Assembly (NCBI GenBank): GCA_045863395.1
Contig: BTVJ01000088.1
Location: forward strand, 1-31,723
Direction: 5' to 3'
DNA length: 31,723 bases
Source of the DNA: Myxococcales bacterium
GTDB taxonomy: Bacteria > Myxococcota_A > UBA9042 > JABWCM01 > BTVJ01
Of this stretch, positions 20,231 through 31,723 are shown in pieces (position 1 is the first letter of the stretch; every line of letters begins with the position of its first letter). Under the pieces are notes generated by a model. That model worked only from the letters and a program-made list of their open reading frames with translations, was not told where the DNA came from and did not search any database. The position numbers and the translations under genes are program-made.

Positions 20231-23200
20231 TCACAGGGGGACGTGCTCGCAGTCACCGGTGCTCGGGTTGCACAGGTCGAGGGTGAGCGGGTTCGCGTCA
20301 TCGCAGTTGATCGGGTCCGCCTCGCAGCCCTGCCCCTCCACATTGCAGAAGTCGACCGTGCACGGGTCGCCGTCGTCGCACACGACGGGCTCGAAGAAGC
20401 ACTCCTCCTCCTGGGCATCGCACGAGTCCAAGGTGCAAGGGTTCCCGTCGTCGCAGAAGGGGATGCCCGTACACAGGCCTGCGCTGCAGAAGTCCTGATA
20501 GGTACAGTCGTCCCCGTCGTCGCAGGAGATGGAGACGAAGGCCGGGCAGGACGCACAGGACCCGGCACAGGTCGTCTGGGCGCTCCCGGCGCAGAGATCG
20601 TCCCACAGGACGTCGCAGCAGAAGGAGTCGAGGGCGCAGACGCAGGCCTCGCAGCCCGGGTCTCCGCACCCCTGGCCGCCCGGGCCCTCACCAAAGCGCC
20701 CCGTGCAACAGTCGAGGCCTGCGCAGACGGAGCACTCGGACGGACAGTCGGCGTAGACCTCGTCCACACAGATCTCGTCCCACATGATCTGGCAGCAGAA
20801 CGAGTCCAGACCGCAGATGCAGGCCTCACAGGCGGGCTCTTCACAGCCCGTGCTGAAGTGGACCGAACAGCAGGAGCTGGCGGGGTTGTCGGGGATGGGG
20901 ACCCCGACGCAGCCGACGAACGCGATGCACTCATCGGTGGTGCAGGGGCTCCCGTCATCGCACACCGCCGGCTCCGTGTCACAGCCGTCGCCCTGCTCGG
21001 TGCAGAAGTCGTCGGTGCAGGGGTCGCCGTCGTCACACTCGAAGGTCGGGTTGAAGCAGTCTCCCGTCTGGGAGTCGCAGAGATCGTGCGTGCAGGGGTC
21101 CTCGTCGAAGCACGACTCCTGGTGGCCCGCACAGACTCCGTCCACACAGCGGTCGTCGAAGGTGCATGGGTTGCCGTCGTCGCACGGGATCACCTCGAAG
21201 GCCGGGCAGCCTGGGCAGGCGGCGCCGCAGGTCGTCTGCGCCGTCACCGCGCAGGCGTCCGACCAGTCGAAGGCGCAGTCCGGGAGCACTGCGGTGACGC
21301 AGGATGCGCAAGTCGGATTCCCGCACAGCGGCACCTGTGAGAAGTTGCCCGTGCCGACGCAGCAGTCGAGGCCCGCGCACTCGGAGCAGGATGACGCGCA
21401 CTCGGTGTAGACCTCCACATGGCAGATCTCGTCCCAATAGACATCGCAGCAGAACGGGTCGAGGGCGCAGATGCAGCCCTCGCAGGCGGCACCCTCACAC
21501 CCTGCGGATTCGTGCACCATGCAGCAGTCGCTGGCGGGGTTCGCGCCCAAGGGGGATGAGGAGCACCCGGTCTGCGGATCGCAGGAGTCCGCGGAGCAGG
21601 AGTTGCCGTCGTCACAGTCGAGCGGCAGGTTCACGCAGCCCTCACCAGGGGCGCAGGAGTCCGTCGTACAGGCATCGCCGTCATCGCAGGACGAAGGCGT
21701 GTTCGCACAACCGCTGCCGGGGAGACAGGCGTCGTCCGTGCAGGGGTTGTCGTCGTCGCAGTCCACAGGCGCGGTCGAGCAGCCAATGTCGTCCCCAGAG
21801 ATGCAGGAGTCTGTCGTGCAGGCGTCACCGTCGTTGCACACGACGGACGGGTTGTCGCAGTCCGCGATCAGCGGGTCGCAGAGGTCGTCCGTGCAGACGT
21901 CGCCGTCGTCACAGTCGAGCGGCTCGCTGAGGCAGCCGACTCCGTCGCCACTGATGCACGAGTCCACGGTGCAGGGGTCACCGTCGTCGCACTGCACTGG
22001 GGTCCCGATGCACTGGCCCGTCCCTGGGTCGCACGCGTCGTCGGTGCACACATCGCCGTCGTCGCACTCCAGCGGAGCGCTCAGGCAGGCTCCCGTCTGG
22101 GTATCGCACGAGTCGATGGTGCAGGGGTCACCGTCGTCGCAGGGGGCCGGCGTGTTGACGCATGCGCCCGTCTGCGGGTCGCAGAGATCCGTCGTGCACG
22201 CGTTGCCGTCGTCGCAACTGAAGGACTCGTTGGTGCAACCGCCCCCCTCCAGGCAGAGGTCGTCGGTGCAGGGGTCGCCGTCGTCGCAGTCGAAGGGCAC
22301 GCTCTCACACTCGCCGGTCTGTGGGCTGCACACGTCTGCGGTGCACGGGTCCTCGTCGAAACAGGTGACGGGAGTGCCGACGCAGGACCCATTGACACAC
22401 GCGTCGTCCAGCGTGCAGGGGTTGCCGTCGTCACAGAGGGTCTGGATGAAGCCCGGACAGGCCGGACACGCAGACGCACAGGTCGTCTGCGCCAGGGACG
22501 CACACTCGTCCGACCAGAAGAGCGAGCACTCCGGGAGCTCGGCGGCGACGCACGTCGCGCACACCTGGTCTCCGCAGGTACCTTGCCCCTCGAAGCCGCC
22601 GATGCCGACACAGCAGTCGAGACCAGCGCACTGAGCGCAGGCCTGCGGACAGTCTGAGTAGACCTCGGCGAGACAGAGCGAGTCCCAGGAGACGTCGCAG
22701 CAGAACGGGTCGAGGCCGCAGATGCAGTCCTCGCAGGGGCTGTCGTCGCACCCGGGCGCGCCATGCACGGAGCAGCAGTCGCTCGTCGGGTTCACTCCCA
22801 GCGGTGCGGACTCGCAGCCGGTCTGCGGATCGCAGGAGTCCGCAGTACAGGCGACGCCGTCGTCGCAGTCGAGGGGCGTCGCGGAGCACCCGACACCGTC
22901 GCCCGAGATGCAGGTGTCGGTCGTACAGGCGTCACCGTCGTCGCAGCCCGTCGGCACATTGGCGCAGGCGCCGGCCTGCGGGTCGCACGAGTCATCGGTG
23001 CAGACGTCTCCGTCGTCGCAGTCGAGGGGCTCGGCCGTGCAGCCGACGCCGGAGACGCAGGCGTCCGTGGTGCAGGGATCGCCGTCATCGCAGGTGACCG
23101 GTGGGTTGTCGCAGTCCTCGATCTGCGGGTCGCACACGTCGTCGGTGCACACGTCGCCGTCTTCACAGTTCAGCGGGCTGCTCACACATCCCACGCCATC

Positions 23201-25396
23201 GTCAGAGCTGCACGTGTCGATGGTGCAGGGGTCTCCATCATCGCACGACACTGGCTGGTTGAGACAGAGTCCCGTCTGCGGGTCGCAGAGATCGTTGGTG
23301 CACACGTCGTCGTCGTCGCAGTCCGCGGCGACGTTCTGGCAGGCGCCGGACTGCGGGTCGCAGGAGTCTGCCGTGCACGGATCCTGGTCGTCGCAGTCCG
23401 TCGGTGCGCTGGAGCACTCTCCCGTCTGGGGGTCGCAGGTGTCCGCCGTGCAGGCATCCCCGTCGTCGCAGTCCGCGGCGACGCTCTGGCAGGCGCCGGA
23501 CTGCGGGTCGCAGGAGTCTGCCGTGCACGCGTCCTGGTCGTCGCAGTCGATGGGCACGTTCGAGCAATCTCCCGTTTGCGGGCTGCACGCGTCGGTCGTG
23601 CACGCGACTCCGTCGTCGCAGGTCACGGCCACTGTGGTGCACTCTCCCGTCTGGGGATCGCAGGAGTCCGTCGTGCACGGGTCGCCGTCGTCACACACCA
23701 CGGGCACGTTGACGCACTGGCCGGACTGCTGATTGCATGTGTCCGTCGTACACGGGTCACCGTCATCGCAGCTCAGCGGGACGTTCCCGCACGTGCCCGT
23801 CTGCGGGTCGCAGGCGTCCGTCGTGCACAGCACCTCGTCGTCACAGTCCACCGGCGCGTTGGCGCACAGGCCGGTCTGCGGGTCGCAGGTGTCCGTCGTG
23901 CACGCGTCGCCGTCATCGCAGCTCACTGGAGCCGCGCCGCAGTCTCCTGTCTGCGAGTCACAGGCATCCGTCGTGCAGGCGTCGCCATCGTCGCACAGGA
24001 CTGCGACGCTGGTACATTGGCCGGTCTGCGGGTCGCACGCGTCCGTCGTGCAGGCGTCCCCGTCGTCGCAGGTCTCCGGGGCGCTCGTGCACACGCCGGT
24101 CTGTGGGTCGCAGGTGTCCTTCGTGCACGCGTCTCCGTCGTTGCAGGGCGCAGCAACGTTCGTGCACTGACCCGACTGCGGATCACAGGCGTCCGTGGTG
24201 CAGGCGTCGCCGTCATCGCAGCTCAGCGCGAGGCTTGTGCACTGACCCGTCGCGGGATCACAGGCGTCCGTCGTGCACGGGTCGCCGTCGTCACAGACCA
24301 CGGCGACATTCCCGCACTCCCCGGTCTGGGGGTCGCAGGAGTCCGTCGTGCAGGCGTCGCCGTCGTCGCACGACTTCGCGACGGCGGCACACCCCGCGGC
24401 CGGGTCGCAGGAGTCGTCCGTGCAGGGATTGGCGTCGTCACATGCGACGGCGTCGTGGGTGCAGCCCGTGGCGGGGACGCAGCCGTCATTGGTACAGGCG
24501 TCGCCGTCGTCGCAGCTCGTCTGCGTCGAGGCGCAGCCGGTCGCCGGGTCACAGGCGTCGTCGGTGCACGCGTTGGAGTCGTCGCACGAGACGGGTGCGT
24601 GGGCGCAGCCCGTCGCAGCCTCGCAGGTGTCGGCGGTGCAGGCGTCGGCGTCGTCGCAGTCTGCAGCCGCGCCGCTCTGGCACTGGCCGCTCTGGCAGGC
24701 GTCACCGGCGGTGCAGGCGTCGCCGTCGTCGCAGGGGTCGCCGTCCTTCGGCGCGTCGGACGGAAGCACGCACTCGCCCGCAGCGGGTCCCGTGCCACAC
24801 GTCCCCGCGGCGGAGCAGGGCCCGTCGGCACCACAGGTCGCGTCCGCCCCCAGGAACCCCGTCACACAGCCCAGGTCGGGGCCGCCTGACCCGGGACACT
24901 GCGCCGCGGAGTCCGGGCACACCGCGAAGTCGTGGAAGGCCGGGTCGAAGGGCTGACCGGGCTCTGGCGCACGGCACGGGCGGCAGGCCGCCGTGTTGGA
25001 GATGCAGTCCGCGCTCCAGGTGGGGTGCTCCGAGATGGACGACTGCTGCCGGCAGACGACCGCTCCCCCGTCCTCGACACACACGCCGCAGGGCACGCCC
25101 CCGTCCTCGTCGATGCAGAAGTGCCCGATGCGGTCCGTGGGCGAGCCCTCCTTGCACTCCTGGGAGTGCTCGGTGCAGATGGCCACACGGCACGAGAAGG
25201 GGTTGATCCCGAGCACCTTCGCGCACTCGGCGGACGGGGCCCCGCCCGAGGGGCGGCAGACGCCGACGTCGAAGCCCGACTCTACGCAACTGGCGAGCAG
25301 AAGCATGGCGCCCGAGACCCAAAGTGCAGCATCGCGGGGCCCGCACCCGCTTCGCGCACGGCCTGACTGGCGCGTGGAGACAATCCCGCTCATCAC
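20231..25396 (-). CDS. Giant (1721 aa) Cys/Asp-rich repeat surface lipoprotein
   Basis: RBS AGGAGAG upstream and lipobox MLLLAS-C. A unique Cys-rich N-terminal region is followed by dozens of 24-25 aa CDDGDxCTxDxCDPQTGxC repeats and three copies of a CC..H..GC....CE.CIC.LDxFCC..WD..C module. Confidence 0.9.
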   Translation of the reverse strand: MMSGIVSTRQSGRARSGCGPRDAALWVSGAMLLLASCVESGFDVGVCRPSGGAPSAECAKVLGINPFSCRVAICTEHSQECKEGSPTDRIGHFCIDEDGGVPCGVCVEDGGAVVCRQQSSISEHPTWSADCISNTAACRPCRAPEPGQPFDPAFHDFAVCPDSAAQCPGSGGPDLGCVTGFLGADATCGADGPCSAAGTCGTGPAAGECVLPSDAPKDGDPCDDGDACTAGDACQSGQCQSGAAADCDDADACTADTCEAATGCAHAPVSCDDSNACTDDACDPATGCASTQTSCDDGDACTNDGCVPATGCTHDAVACDDANPCTDDSCDPAAGCAAVAKSCDDGDACTTDSCDPQTGECGNVAVVCDDGDPCTTDACDPATGQCTSLALSCDDGDACTTDACDPQSGQCTNVAAPCNDGDACTKDTCDPQTGVCTSAPETCDDGDACTTDACDPQTGQCTSVAVLCDDGDACTTDACDSQTGDCGAAPVSCDDGDACTTDTCDPQTGLCANAPVDCDDEVLCTTDACDPQTGTCGNVPLSCDDGDPCTTDTCNQQSGQCVNVPVVCDDGDPCTTDSCDPQTGECTTVAVTCDDGVACTTDACSPQTGDCSNVPIDCDDQDACTADSCDPQSGACQSVAADCDDGDACTADTCDPQTGECSSAPTDCDDQDPCTADSCDPQSGACQNVAADCDDDDVCTNDLCDPQTGLCLNQPVSCDDGDPCTIDTCSSDDGVGCVSSPLNCEDGDVCTDDVCDPQIEDCDNPPVTCDDGDPCTTDACVSGVGCTAEPLDCDDGDVCTDDSCDPQAGACANVPTGCDDGDACTTDTCISGDGVGCSATPLDCDDGVACTADSCDPQTGCESAPLGVNPTSDCCSVHGAPGCDDSPCEDCICGLDPFCCDVSWDSLCLAEVYSDCPQACAQCAGLDCCVGIGGFEGQGTCGDQVCATCVAAELPECSLFWSDECASLAQTTCASACPACPGFIQTLCDDGNPCTLDDACVNGSCVGTPVTCFDEDPCTADVCSPQTGECESVPFDCDDGDPCTDDLCLEGGGCTNESFSCDDGNACTTDLCDPQTGACVNTPAPCDDGDPCTIDSCDTQTGACLSAPLECDDGDVCTDDACDPGTGQCIGTPVQCDDGDPCTVDSCISGDGVGCLSEPLDCDDGDVCTDDLCDPLIADCDNPSVVCNDGDACTTDSCISGDDIGCSTAPVDCDDDNPCTDDACLPGSGCANTPSSCDDGDACTTDSCAPGEGCVNLPLDCDDGNSCSADSCDPQTGCSSSPLGANPASDCCMVHESAGCEGAACEGCICALDPFCCDVYWDEICHVEVYTECASSCSECAGLDCCVGTGNFSQVPLCGNPTCASCVTAVLPDCAFDWSDACAVTAQTTCGAACPGCPAFEVIPCDDGNPCTFDDRCVDGVCAGHQESCFDEDPCTHDLCDSQTGDCFNPTFECDDGDPCTDDFCTEQGDGCDTEPAVCDDGSPCTTDECIAFVGCVGVPIPDNPASSCCSVHFSTGCEEPACEACICGLDSFCCQIMWDEICVDEVYADCPSECSVCAGLDCCTGRFGEGPGGQGCGDPGCEACVCALDSFCCDVLWDDLCAGSAQTTCAGSCASCPAFVSISCDDGDDCTYQDFCSAGLCTGIPFCDDGNPCTLDSCDAQEEECFFEPVVCDDGDPCTVDFCNVEGQGCEADPINCDDANPLTLDLCNPSTGDCEHVPL
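20240..24740 (-). repeat. Coding tandem repeat array (72-75 bp period) with higher-order modules
   Basis: Recurring plus-strand core gtgca(g/c)g..gtcgccgtcgtcgca. An 88-bp near-identical pair lies at 23311-23398 and 23461-23548. Confidence 0.9.
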
Positions 25397-28057: not shown

Positions 28058-28969
28058 ATGACCCGCGTCGCGCCTGCCCTGATGCTCGTGCTCCTGACGG
28101 CCTGCCGCCAGGAGCCGCCAGCAGGTTCCCCACAGCCCGTGGCGGTCGCGGCACCGGGGCACATCCACATCACATTGAGGGCGACCGGGCGCGTCGGCGA
28201 CGCGCTGGCCGTCGTCCATCGGCGCCTGGACGCGCTGCGCGACAACGAGCTGGCGCCCCTGGCGGCCCGGGCGCACGTGATCATCAGGGAGGATCGGATC
28301 GTCATCGAGGCGCCCCTGCTCCCGGGGGCCTCCTGCGAGTCGGCGACGGCGGCCGGGTGGGTGGACGCGGTGGCGAGGACGGTGAGCCGCAGGGGGACCC
28401 TGGGCTTCCACCGGGTCCCCGAGTCCGGCCCCTCCCTGCGGGAGCTGCTCGTGCAGTCCGGCTCCGGCGCGACGGTGAAAGAGACGGGCCGGGGGCAGGT
28501 CACAGTCGACGTGCCGCCGGCGGACATCGCGCCGGTCGTGGCTCGCCTCGCAGTGCCGCCCGGCGCGATCATCGTGACGCAGGGCGCACGAGAGGGCGGC
28601 ACGGAGCTCCTGCTGGTGGCGCGGGAGCCCTCTCTGACGGGCGCGGCGCTGCGCTCCGCGGAGGTCACGATGGACGAGTACCGGCAGCTCCCCCAGGTCG
28701 CGGTGGACTTCACGGAGGAGGGGAGCGCGGCGTTCTCCGCGCTGAGTGGAGATGTGGTCGGACAGCCGCTGGCCATCCTCTTCGAGGGGGCGCTGGTGTC
28801 CGCGCCCCGGGTGCAGCAGCGCATCGAGGGCGGGCGGGCCGTGATCACGCTGGGGGCGGGCCCCACGCAGGAGGTCCACCGCGAGGCCCGTGAGCTTGCG
28901 ACGATCCTGACGGCGGGAGCGTTCGTGGCGCCCGTCGAGGTGCTGGAGCAGCGCCTGAGCTGCGAGTAG
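28058..28969 (+). CDS. Lipoprotein with stand-alone SecD/SecDF periplasmic P1 (head) domain
   Basis: Lipobox LLTA-C. SecD-like VHRRLDAL, DRIVIEAP, GTLGFH, LTGAALRSA, PQVAVDFTEEGSAAF, LAILFEG.LVSAPRVQQRIEGG, EARELATIL.AGA. No TM helices. Confidence 0.8.
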   Translation: MTRVAPALMLVLLTACRQEPPAGSPQPVAVAAPGHIHITLRATGRVGDALAVVHRRLDALRDNELAPLAARAHVIIREDRIVIEAPLLPGASCESATAAGWVDAVARTVSRRGTLGFHRVPESGPSLRELLVQSGSGATVKETGRGQVTVDVPPADIAPVVARLAVPPGAIIVTQGAREGGTELLLVAREPSLTGAALRSAEVTMDEYRQLPQVAVDFTEEGSAAFSALSGDVVGQPLAILFEGALVSAPRVQQRIEGGRAVITLGAGPTQEVHREARELATILTAGAFVAPVEVLEQRLSCE

Positions 28970-29014: not shown

Positions 29015-29764
29015 TCAGGTGCCCTGCCGGGGCGCACCGCCAATATCGCCGGACAGGTGGCGGGCCCGCGCCCAGACGTCCGACGAGTAGTCCTTGCCCG
29101 TGCTGAGCTGGTCGAGGGTCTCCAGGCTCTTCACGCGAGACGGTCCCGCGTTGTAGGCATAGACTGCGGCCTGAAGGACCTGGTCGGGCTTCCAGGTGGG
29201 GAACTTCTTGGCGATCTGATCCCGGTAGCCCGCCAGGATGCTCGCCGCGTGGTTGATGTGATCGAAGCTGCGCGCGCCCCCGACCGGGGTGTGGCTGTTC
29301 TTGTCCACCTGCATGACGCCAAAGCCGTTGCCATCCCAGATGGAGTAGCCGTTCCGGTCGAGCTGGTTCCCTCCGCGGGTCTCGCGGCTGGCGATGGCGG
29401 CGAGCAGCGCCGGAGGCAGGTTGTGCGCCGCGGCCACCTTCACGAAGGTCTCCTGCATGGCGAGGAGGCGCTCCCGGTCCTGGTCGGCCATGGTCTCCGA
29501 CGCCGTAACGCCCGAGCCCGCCACGCCGTTGCCCTTGGCGGTGGAGCGGCTGGCGCCCGTGGTCGCGTGCTGGAACAGGAGCGCGTTCGGCCCCGTGACG
29601 TCGTCGCCGGTGGTGGCCGTGGGCGCCACCGTGCGAGCGCCTGTCCCGTAGTCCATCGCTCGCAGCCCGTCGCGCACCGGGGACCGGGTGGCCGGCCCGG
29701 CGGTTGACGGGCTCAGGGTGCGGGGCGGCAGTCGTGTGGTGGGGCGGGGGCGCTGCTCGGGCAT
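29015..29764 (-). CDS. Goose-type (lysozyme g, GH23) muramidase with Pro/Thr/Arg-rich N-terminal extension
   Basis: RBS GGAGG before ATG 29764 (MPEQRPRP...). Motifs TTGAS..TAK, GV.AS, AAIASRET, DGNGFGVMQVDKNSH, KKFPTW, AYNAG, DYSSDVWARA. Confidence 0.9.
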   Translation of the reverse strand: MPEQRPRPTTRLPPRTLSPSTAGPATRSPVRDGLRAMDYGTGARTVAPTATTGDDVTGPNALLFQHATTGASRSTAKGNGVAGSGVTASETMADQDRERLLAMQETFVKVAAAHNLPPALLAAIASRETRGGNQLDRNGYSIWDGNGFGVMQVDKNSHTPVGGARSFDHINHAASILAGYRDQIAKKFPTWKPDQVLQAAVYAYNAGPSRVKSLETLDQLSTGKDYSSDVWARARHLSGDIGGAPRQGT

Positions 29765-29908: not shown

Positions 29909-31465
29909 ATGAGACAGCGAAGCCACTGGGGTTGGGGGTGGGAGGACCGCTTCCCTGACGCAGCGACGCGGGAAGCACTGGGTAAAGTGGTGGCGGCGCT
30001 GCTGGGGATCCCTGCGCCCACGCCGGAGGAGCCGGTGCCGCTCGGGGAGGCGGACGTGCGGGCCCCGACGCTGACGACCCCCGCCGATCTCGCCGCCTTC
30101 TGCACCGATGACCGGGCGGTTCGGGCTCGGCACACCTATGGGCGCGCGTACCGCGATCTCGTCCGCGGCTTCCGCGGGGACTTCCGGGGTGCCCCGGACC
30201 TGGTCGCGCTGCCTCGCACCGAGGACGACGTCGCCGCGGTGCTCGGGTGGGCGTCGGCAGCCGGGGTGGCGGTGGTGCCTTGGGGTGGAGGTACGAGCGT
30301 GGTCGGTGGGGTGGAGTGCATGTCGGCGGACCACGCGGGGGTCATTACCCTCGATCTCACGCGCCTCGACCGGGTCATGGAGGTGGACGAGGTGTCCCTC
30401 GCCGCGCGCATCCAGGCGGGCGCCACGGGGCCCGTCATCGAGGAGCAGCTCGGCGCCCGCGGCCTGACCCTGCGGCACTTCCCCCAGAGCTTCGAGTTCT
30501 CCACCCTGGGCGGGTGGATCGCCACCCGCGCGGGGGGCCACTTCGCCACGGTCTACACCCACGTCGACGACCTGGTGGAGTCGGTCCGCATGGTGACGCC
30601 GCGGGGGCCGTGGGAGTCGCGCCGGCTCCCCGGCTCAGGGGCCGGGCCGAGCCCCGACCGCCTGGTGCTGGGCTCCGAGGGGACCCTCGGCGTGATCACC
30701 GAGGCGTGGATGCGCGTGCGCCCCCGCCCCACCCACAAGCTGAGCGCCAGCGTGCGGTTCCGGGACTTCGCCGCCGCGGTGGACGCCACGCGGGTGATCG
30801 CTCAAGCCGGCCTCTACCCCACCAACTGTCGGCTGCTCGACGCGCGGGAGGCCATGCTCCACCAGGTGGGCACCACCAACGTGCTGCTCCTGGGCTTCGA
30901 GTCCACCGGCGCCACCCGGGAGCCCTGGATGGCGGAGGCCCTCGCCCTGTGCGCGGCGCGGGGTGGCTCGTCGTCGGAGGTCCGGCGCGACGACGAGACG
31001 GCGACCTGGCGCGCGGCGTTCCTGGACGCTCCGTACCGCCAGAGCGTGCTCGTCTCCCTCGGCATCGTCGCCGACACCTTCGAGACCGCGTGCCCCTGGG
31101 ACCGCTTCGAGGCGCTCCACGCGCGTGTAATCGGGGCCACCAGAGAGGCCATGCGCTCCGTGGCCGGCGGGGGGCTCGTCTCGTGCCGCTTCACGCACGT
31201 CTACCCCGACGGACCGGCCCCGTACTACACGTTTCTCTTCGCGGGCCGCCGCGGCGACGAGCTCGCCCAGTGGCAGGCCGTGAAGACCGCGGCGTCGGAC
31301 GCCCTGCTCGCGGCCGGCGGCACCATCACCCACCACCACGCGGTGGGGCGCACCCACCTGCCGTGGGCTCAGGCGCAGCGCCCGGCCCTGTTCGGCGAGG
31401 CCCTGGCGGCGGCGAAGGCGATCCTGGACCCGGCGGGAGTCCTGAACCCGGGGGCGCTGATCTGA
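29909..31465 (+). CDS. FAD-binding oxidoreductase, alkyl-dihydroxyacetonephosphate synthase-like (VAO/PCMH family)
   Basis: WGWG, PWGGGTSVVGG, RHFPQSFEFSTLGGWIATR, GSEGTLGVITE, THVYPDG, TITHHHAVG, LDPAGVLNPG. Confidence 0.92.
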   Translation: MRQRSHWGWGWEDRFPDAATREALGKVVAALLGIPAPTPEEPVPLGEADVRAPTLTTPADLAAFCTDDRAVRARHTYGRAYRDLVRGFRGDFRGAPDLVALPRTEDDVAAVLGWASAAGVAVVPWGGGTSVVGGVECMSADHAGVITLDLTRLDRVMEVDEVSLAARIQAGATGPVIEEQLGARGLTLRHFPQSFEFSTLGGWIATRAGGHFATVYTHVDDLVESVRMVTPRGPWESRRLPGSGAGPSPDRLVLGSEGTLGVITEAWMRVRPRPTHKLSASVRFRDFAAAVDATRVIAQAGLYPTNCRLLDAREAMLHQVGTTNVLLLGFESTGATREPWMAEALALCAARGGSSSEVRRDDETATWRAAFLDAPYRQSVLVSLGIVADTFETACPWDRFEALHARVIGATREAMRSVAGGGLVSCRFTHVYPDGPAPYYTFLFAGRRGDELAQWQAVKTAASDALLAAGGTITHHHAVGRTHLPWAQAQRPALFGEALAAAKAILDPAGVLNPGALI

Positions 31466-31469
31466 CCCC

Positions 31470-31723
31470 GTAACGGCGGCGAGCCCCCGTTGCTCACGCG
31501 GTCGGCGACTCACTTGAGTGCAGGTCTCGGAGGGACGCGTGCCGTTACTGCGGCGTACGAGGGGTGCGGGGAGCCCGGTTGAGACGTCGTGGGCCAGGGC
31601 AATGACCCACGTAACCGGTAAGCAACTCTTGATAGCCTCAATCCTTGCTCGGGATGTAGGCTCAGGAGGTCGGTCGCGTCCGGTCCCACGGGGGGACCGC
31701 CGGGCGACCGGAGAGCACTCTGA
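31470..31723. ncRNA. Candidate structured non-coding RNA, probably cut by the window edge
   Basis: Consecutive long stems and no ORF in the track; see findings. Confidence 0.4.

Follow-up and report, generated by a model that had tools for sequence, protein, structure and literature searches.

A non-coding segment at the end of the contig

The window, meaning the whole 31,723-nucleotide stretch of DNA that was analysed, is the entire contig C88 of genome G000 (8.8 Mb in 186 contigs), and ends at position 31723, beyond a gene for an FAD-linked oxidase. The segment of interest lies at its end, between 31561 and 31723, in the following setting:

29909..31465, plus strand: FAD-linked oxidase gene, 518 aa, an open reading frame with PF01565 and PF02913; context only, outside the element
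31466..31723, no strand assigned: non-coding stretch to the contig end, GC 0.67, six frames without codon bias
31710..31717, plus strand: GGAG, seen directly and overlapping GAGCA; could serve as a ribosome-binding site, provided that a start codon begins at 31723

The 258 bases 3' of the oxidase gene lack a coding signal in any of the six frames, with coding scores over 31466-31723 of -0.27 to -0.76, against +0.52 for the adjoining real gene. The last 160 bases of the contig are non-coding, and the frame scores speak against a refuting condition named in an earlier note on this DNA, that the region is the end of a coding sequence entering from outside. Neither a sigma-70 promoter nor a terminator consensus was found near the segment, a search by eye for a sigma-54 consensus gave nothing convincing, and there was no terminal inverted repeat or target duplication at the segment, nor any motif in common with the region upstream of dprA. 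Elsewhere, the window carries a small gene with a weak SLT-like lysozyme domain (29015-29707, minus strand; E 9e-4), a stand-alone protein with a SecDF P1-head domain (28058-28969, plus strand), and a 1721-aa repeat protein, rich in cysteine and with DDGD-x-CT-x-D units in large number (20231-25396, minus strand).

Predicted secondary structure

The earlier note had described three back-to-back stems in the segment, and folding recovered every arm where that note had placed it. The predicted helices are:

31575..31618, plus strand: stem 1, 6 bp + 6 bp with a 12-nt loop (31575-31580/31613-31618 enclosing 31588-31593/31606-31611), pair probability 0.85-0.96
31626..31668, plus strand: stem 2, 6+5+4 bp (31626-31631/31663-31668, 31634-31638/31658-31662, 31641-31644/31652-31655), folding prediction
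31671..31710, plus strand: stem 3, 7+7 bp (31671-31677/31704-31710 and 31681-31687/31693-31699), folding prediction
31561-31567/31715-31721, plus strand: predicted closing helix, 7 bp including G-U, making a four-way junction; depends on the transcript start

The prediction is of three stable hairpins, with stem pair probabilities of 0.82-1.0, mostly above 0.9, and a single terminal pair at 0.36. The energy of 31575-31710 was -66.8 kcal/mol, compared with -54.3 +/- 4.0 kcal/mol for dinucleotide shuffles (z -3.2); only one of 300 shuffles folded as low, and one of 60 random genome windows had a lower z. Wider spans give weaker values, with z at -1.96 for 31540-31723 and at -0.46 for the full gap, 31466-31723. 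The reverse strand of 31575-31710 gave a z of -3.7, and as both strands have similar values, z alone cannot assign the strand. The plus strand is approximately 10 kcal/mol more stable, with seven G-U pairs against one, although this is a weak point, being expected of any G-rich strand. The closing helix has a pair probability of 0.78-1.0 if the RNA starts at or after 31540, but of 0.09-0.14 if it starts at or before 31500, and it can join all three stems only with a start at around 31520 or later. By inspection, the stem 2 loop (31645-31651) offers candidate pseudoknots of 5 bp each with 31713-31717 or with 31621-31625.

Contig break, repeat junction and second copy

The end of the contig coincides with a repeat:

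31669..31723, plus strand: 55-nt repeat entry where the contig breaks; 54 of its 55 bases are common to a diverged copy elsewhere (run contigs)

Exactly 55 bases of overlap with another contig were found at 62 of the 372 contig ends, and more at none, hence the assembly word was 55. Many contig ends in this genome occur repeatedly in almost the same sequence, as the ends of insertion sequences typically do. Two others, the left end of C134 and the right end of C174, share what we take to be a common boxA-like leader; as neither tRNA-Ile(GAT) nor tRNA-Ala(TGC) was called in G000, the rRNA operons are probably unassembled.

Assembled contigs from four of 23 sequencing runs were compared with the window. 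In the sludge run X13, record 14 (1336 nt) matches 31669-31723 at 54 of 55 positions and continues for 13 nt past the contig end. By eye, the 30 letters upstream of this block match 31639-31668, the 3' part of stem 2, at 22 of 30 positions, with no compensatory change and with the inner helix of stem 2 weakened, while the remaining sequence of the record has no match to the window. The depth of this record, 9.96, is about twice the 3.2-6.1 of this organism's contigs. In run X1, which may be the source sample, the contig of this organism (record 1) ends at 31698, the point at which a graph of 31-mers would meet the same node. Arithmetic on binned depths gives an excess in its last two bins that implies further records of about 20x there, which would put the copy at about twice this organism's depth in X1 as well. 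Taken together, the X13 match from 31669 and the X1 stop at 31698 imply a related, diverged copy; judged from these run contigs, it exists in another context, with a near-identical block that starts at stem 3. This copy could come from a co-occurring relative, or be a mobile element, a paralogue left out of the bins or a duplicated attachment site. The other contigs of G000 carry no second copy of the segment or of the 55-mer, and none of them continues the sequence past 31723, for which the run contigs compared supplied no letters either.

Searches for homologues, transcripts and known families

A covariance model of the segment (R2), which is insensitive to remote homologues as it was built from a single sequence, gave chance-level matches only in 106 genomes of the class and 150 of the phylum, and none in five unrelated genomes. 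BLAST against 60 relatives returned five short matches of 20-32 nt, judged from the table, and against 380 phylum genomes, with two candidates scored per genome, four matches that included no homologue. A fixed pattern with three mismatches was absent from all 300 genomes searched, and a loose pattern matched five times in 400 genomes, against eight control matches. Larger collections gave similar results: a short-loop pattern found seven matches in the 185,579 genomes of a GTDB scan, all chance-like; a JGI metagenome scan found six, with no homologue; viral collections yielded one true raiA motif RNA and three raiA 3' fragments, with no homologue of the segment; and plasmid and phage collections yielded no homologue. 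The matches that were inspected were chance-like or inside coding DNA, and none had the flanking words or stems. These collection scans need exact patterns, and G000 has no relative at the genus or family level, so their sensitivity is limited; hence a vertically inherited RNA could be beyond the reach of such searches.

None of the ten closest orthologues of the oxidase gene (58-65% identity) has the element downstream, where other neighbours are found, although synteny is lost among these orthologues anyway, and the absence therefore says little. Assembled contigs of the RNA runs X18 and X20 include none over 31468-31723, X18 covering the oxidase gene, a gap that proves nothing.

The Rfam covariance search that the earlier note had suggested, naming raiA, HEARO, group II intron and retron models, returned no match for the segment, and neither did Rfam families overall, including riboswitches and leaders. 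This applies to RF02033 (HEARO / omega-RNA) and to group II intron and retron RNAs, the intron domains V-VI of which would fall past the contig edge. A likeness to cobalamin, NiCo, SAM-I, T-box and group II intron domain I RNAs was considered and dropped, there being no Rfam match. Housekeeping RNAs were rejected as candidates, with tmRNA lying on C44, 6S RNA on C14 and RNase P RNA on C58, and no tRNA was called in 31561-31723 even at a relaxed threshold. The RRXRR domain of IscB was found neither in G000 nor in any of 201 genomes, in a search whose control was silent, and the IS110 transposase domain PF02371 was absent from G000 in a search whose control worked, in an assembly type in which repeats often remain unassembled. 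There were four reverse-transcriptase matches in G000, all on other contigs. No description of such an RNA was found in the literature, where a text search cannot match sequence, and a check of a 2026 preprint on non-coding families (10.64898/2026.10.21.760802) for three words found none of them.

The reverse-transcriptase genes have features of their own. Those at approximately 15,000-21,300 of C78 and 31,300-35,000 of C64 (frames of 1179 and 842 aa) have long C-terminal extensions and adjoin cas1-like genes, the cas1 and the extension being identified by eye; a neighbouring stand-alone ORF on C78 appears to have a similar extension. Those at approximately 49,500-51,000 of C33 and at 63-935 of C68 resemble, by eye, the reverse transcriptases of diversity-generating retroelements, one having an Avd-like stretch upstream and the other being truncated and fused to such a stretch.

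Comparison with the raiA motif RNA

The earlier note had also recognised conserved words of the raiA motif RNA (RF03072). These are present in the order it gave, and the raiA words as given there agree with true raiA loci and with the published alignment. The comparison used three true loci, L045 (on a viral contig), L055 and L056 (both filed as plasmids), and two features:

31577..31614, plus strand: raiA-like words GGTTGA, GTCG, GCCAG, GGCAA and GACCCACGTAA, seen directly and compared with L045, L055 and L056
31615-31619/31707-31711, plus strand: alternative 5-bp helix in the register of raiA P5, in competition with the outermost base pairs of stem 1 and stem 3

Membership of RF03072 is set at a covariance-model score of at least 101.3 bits. 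The segment, a query cut by the contig end, had no match at the gathering threshold or at E <= 10, whereas the positive control, L045, scored 188 bits. None of 151 phylum genomes had a match above the cut-off, nor did any of 121 Chloroflexota-group genomes, in which the control was also silent; none of six phylum-name terms occurs in the raiA supplements, which is uninformative. Conversely, R2 detected nothing above noise in L045, L055 or L056. In plain alignment to one raiA query, 64, 131 and 4633 of 87,802 genome windows scored as well under three schemes, 64 being the most favourable. A three-sequence raiA HMM ranked the site best in the window and sixth in the genome, but with an E of 370, and a gapped raiA profile ranked it 59-65 in the genome, with the reversed profile reaching similar top scores. 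Approximately 60 sites in the genome thus score as well as the segment for raiA-like words. The words do exist, yet they carry little weight, and profile tests find the resemblance not significant.

The individual features divide. The segment resembles the raiA motif RNA / ModT (RF03072; PMC10861870, PMC12968392, PMC11751092) in its 5' word order, in a possible P3a, in its intergenic place, and in the P4 5' strand CCACGUAA, present at 31607-31614; in the published alignment of approximately 2377 sequences (PMC10861870), 2008 rows have it with G or C next. It also has a helix in the P5 register, with five Watson-Crick pairs that begin right after CCACGTAA and end two bases before GAGCA. At least five Watson-Crick pairs plus the word occur at 0.2% of 200,000 random positions, in a post hoc test that was designed after seeing the sequence, within a scan that spans very many genomes. 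By chance, 59 sites x 0.002-0.007 would leave 0.1-0.4 sites of this kind in a genome, or about ten times fewer if non-coding DNA alone is counted, assuming that this makes up about 10% of the genome.

By contrast, the PK1 loop expected between GCCAG and GGCA is absent. PK1 of raiA is a 6-7 bp pairing of the P3b loop with the linker after GAGCAYGG (PMC12968392), whereas inspection of the segment finds only a 5-bp pairing, 31595-31599/31718-31722, in another register. The P1b/P1c 5' strand before UUG is likewise missing, GGUUG alone being kept, with GAGCCC as the preceding bases. In place of the PK2 triplet A-(U/C)-G followed by G, that is AUG or ACG in raiA, the segment reads A-C-U-C at 31717-31720, and GAGCACU stands at this place in none of the rows of the published alignment (PMC10861870). 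P3a-P3b with an A-rich internal loop could form with 4 bp + 2 bp, but at a pair probability of 0.0 and an energy of -3.1 kcal/mol, against -18.9 kcal/mol for stem 1, a local hairpin within which the raiA-like words are predicted to be locked. A raiA-like fold is approximately 15 kcal/mol worse than the predicted one, although cut-off fragments of true raiA also misfold (two of three, by eye), and this deficit is therefore not decisive. The usual place of the raiA RNA is after comFC (74%) and before raiA/hpf (66%; PMC10861870), whereas here the upstream neighbour is the FAD oxidase gene, and the contig ends before any downstream gene. Finally, there is evidence of more than one copy of the segment, unlike the single-locus raiA. 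With no RF03072 match, and the PK1 loop, P1b strand and PK2 triplet missing, raiA membership was rejected: the segment is not a raiA member.

The comparison loci were themselves informative about raiA. Viral contig L045 begins with a whole raiA RNA (12-217), while L051, L053 (minus strand) and L052 (590-640) carry only a raiA 3' end, behind unrelated AT-rich DNA; L045 and L052 are identical in the bases after the RNA. From the sequences, this looks like prophage integration at the 3' end of raiA, for which no report was found in the literature. L055 and L056, at 2.6 and 11.9 Mb, carry raiA-like RNA and are probably chromosomes.

Discussion

The segment is likely an uncatalogued structured element, truncated by assembly. 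Hence the earlier note's proposal of a raiA-related or new non-coding RNA stands for the structured non-coding element, and falls for raiA membership. That note had offered an element-associated RNA with its gene past the edge as an alternative; the repeat junction at 31669 agrees with this, and the absence of any visible partner gene does not. It is nevertheless the reading we favour, tentatively and with a probability of roughly 0.35: the segment would be the 5' portion, on the plus strand, of a structured RNA not yet catalogued, the remainder of which was lost at the contig break, and which would belong to a repeated, probably mobile element. Such an RNA would probably serve a protein as its scaffold or guide, the gene for this protein lying past the contig end. 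Transcription, strand, mobility and the partner protein are all things we infer. Element-borne scaffold or guide RNAs include the omega-RNA of IscB, the bridge RNA of IS110, and the ncRNAs of reverse transcriptases, and it is by analogy with these that a scaffold or guide role may be suggested. Like HEARO/omega-RNA (RF02033), IS110 bridge RNA and retron ncRNAs, the segment is structured, non-coding, within a 150-300 nt size range, patchily distributed, and located where a repeat begins; unlike them, it has no Rfam match, no partner gene in view, and a terminal helix of only 7 bp. IS110 bridge RNA accompanies an IS110 recombinase gene and has two large guide loops, whereas inspection of the segment finds no large two-sided guide loops. 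In favour of the element RNA are a fold that beats shuffles, the lack of a coding frame, the repeat junction, and the second, diverged copy. Against it, no partner gene (IscB, IS110 transposase or an adjacent reverse transcriptase) was seen in the window or in G000, the segment has neither a terminal inverted repeat nor a target duplication, and the second copy could instead be a duplicated attachment site or the orthologous sequence of a co-occurring relative.

Much of the same evidence bears on other explanations. It is improbable that the segment is a remote relative of raiA that has retained P1c, P3a, P5 and the 5' strand of P4, with its 3' strands past the contig end, P5 expanded into a two-hairpin domain and PK1 lost, and that acts in trans like raiA. 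The order of the words, the base after CCACGUAA, the exact placing of the P5-register helix between CCACGTAA and GAGCA, and the HMM ranking all speak for such a cousin, and its fold deficit is not decisive; yet the covariance models fail in both directions, many other genome sites do as well in the alignment and profile tests, the PK1 loop, P1b strand and PK2 triplet are missing, P3a/P3b has a pair probability of zero, the GTDB matches look like chance, and none of the 151 phylum genomes exceeds the raiA cut-off. The broader claim of a multi-copy, remodelled raiA branch outside Bacillota and Actinomycetota, with the P4/P5 core words kept, PK1 replaced and P5 grown into a branched domain, is unlikely to the same degree. 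Less probable than these is a cluster of hairpins acting at the DNA level, such as a MITE, a REP-like remnant or an element end, and not a functional transcript. The similar z-scores of the two strands, the repetition of the sequence, the absence of promoter and terminator consensus, and the recurrence of insertion-sequence-like contig ends in this genome speak for it, whereas the lack of a second copy in G000 and of a terminal inverted repeat, and a closing helix that needs G-U pairs, speak against it.

Two further explanations are both distinctly unlikely. In one, the segment is a cis-acting leader of the next gene, in which the closing helix or the stem 2 loop masks the ribosome-binding site at 31710-31717; the contig ends in an A with a GGAG 9 nt ahead of it, the stem 2 loop has two alternative 5-bp partners, and the closing helix depends on its 5' context, but no start codon is seen, no riboswitch or leader family of Rfam matches, and GGAG is common by chance. 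In the other, to which we give the least credence, 31561-31721 is a complete stand-alone RNA of approximately 161 nt, the 3' third of which has a duplicate that serves an integrative element as its attachment site. The self-contained four-way junction would fit this, as would the sharp start of the shared block at 31669, the stop of the X13 record 13 nt past the end, and the similar manner in which viral contigs carry raiA 3' ends; however, no integrase was seen, and the second copy, being similar upstream of the block too, looks more like a homologue than like foreign DNA.

What is new here, on the evidence of the run contigs, is that the last 55 bases are a repeat entry: a second, diverged copy meets the segment at 31669 but has other surroundings. 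The current state is that of a lead, consisting of one truncated copy and 85 letters of a second. PMC12968392 describes the triangular PK1/PK2 core of raiA, an RNA whose biochemical job is unknown, as conserved throughout the solved subtypes. Were the segment a remodelled branch of raiA, it would be a natural deletion variant of this supposedly essential core, and such a relative, lacking PK1 and found in a distant phylum, would reveal the parts on which the function depends. If instead it is the RNA of a repeated element, the gene lost with the break could establish a new pair of RNA and protein.
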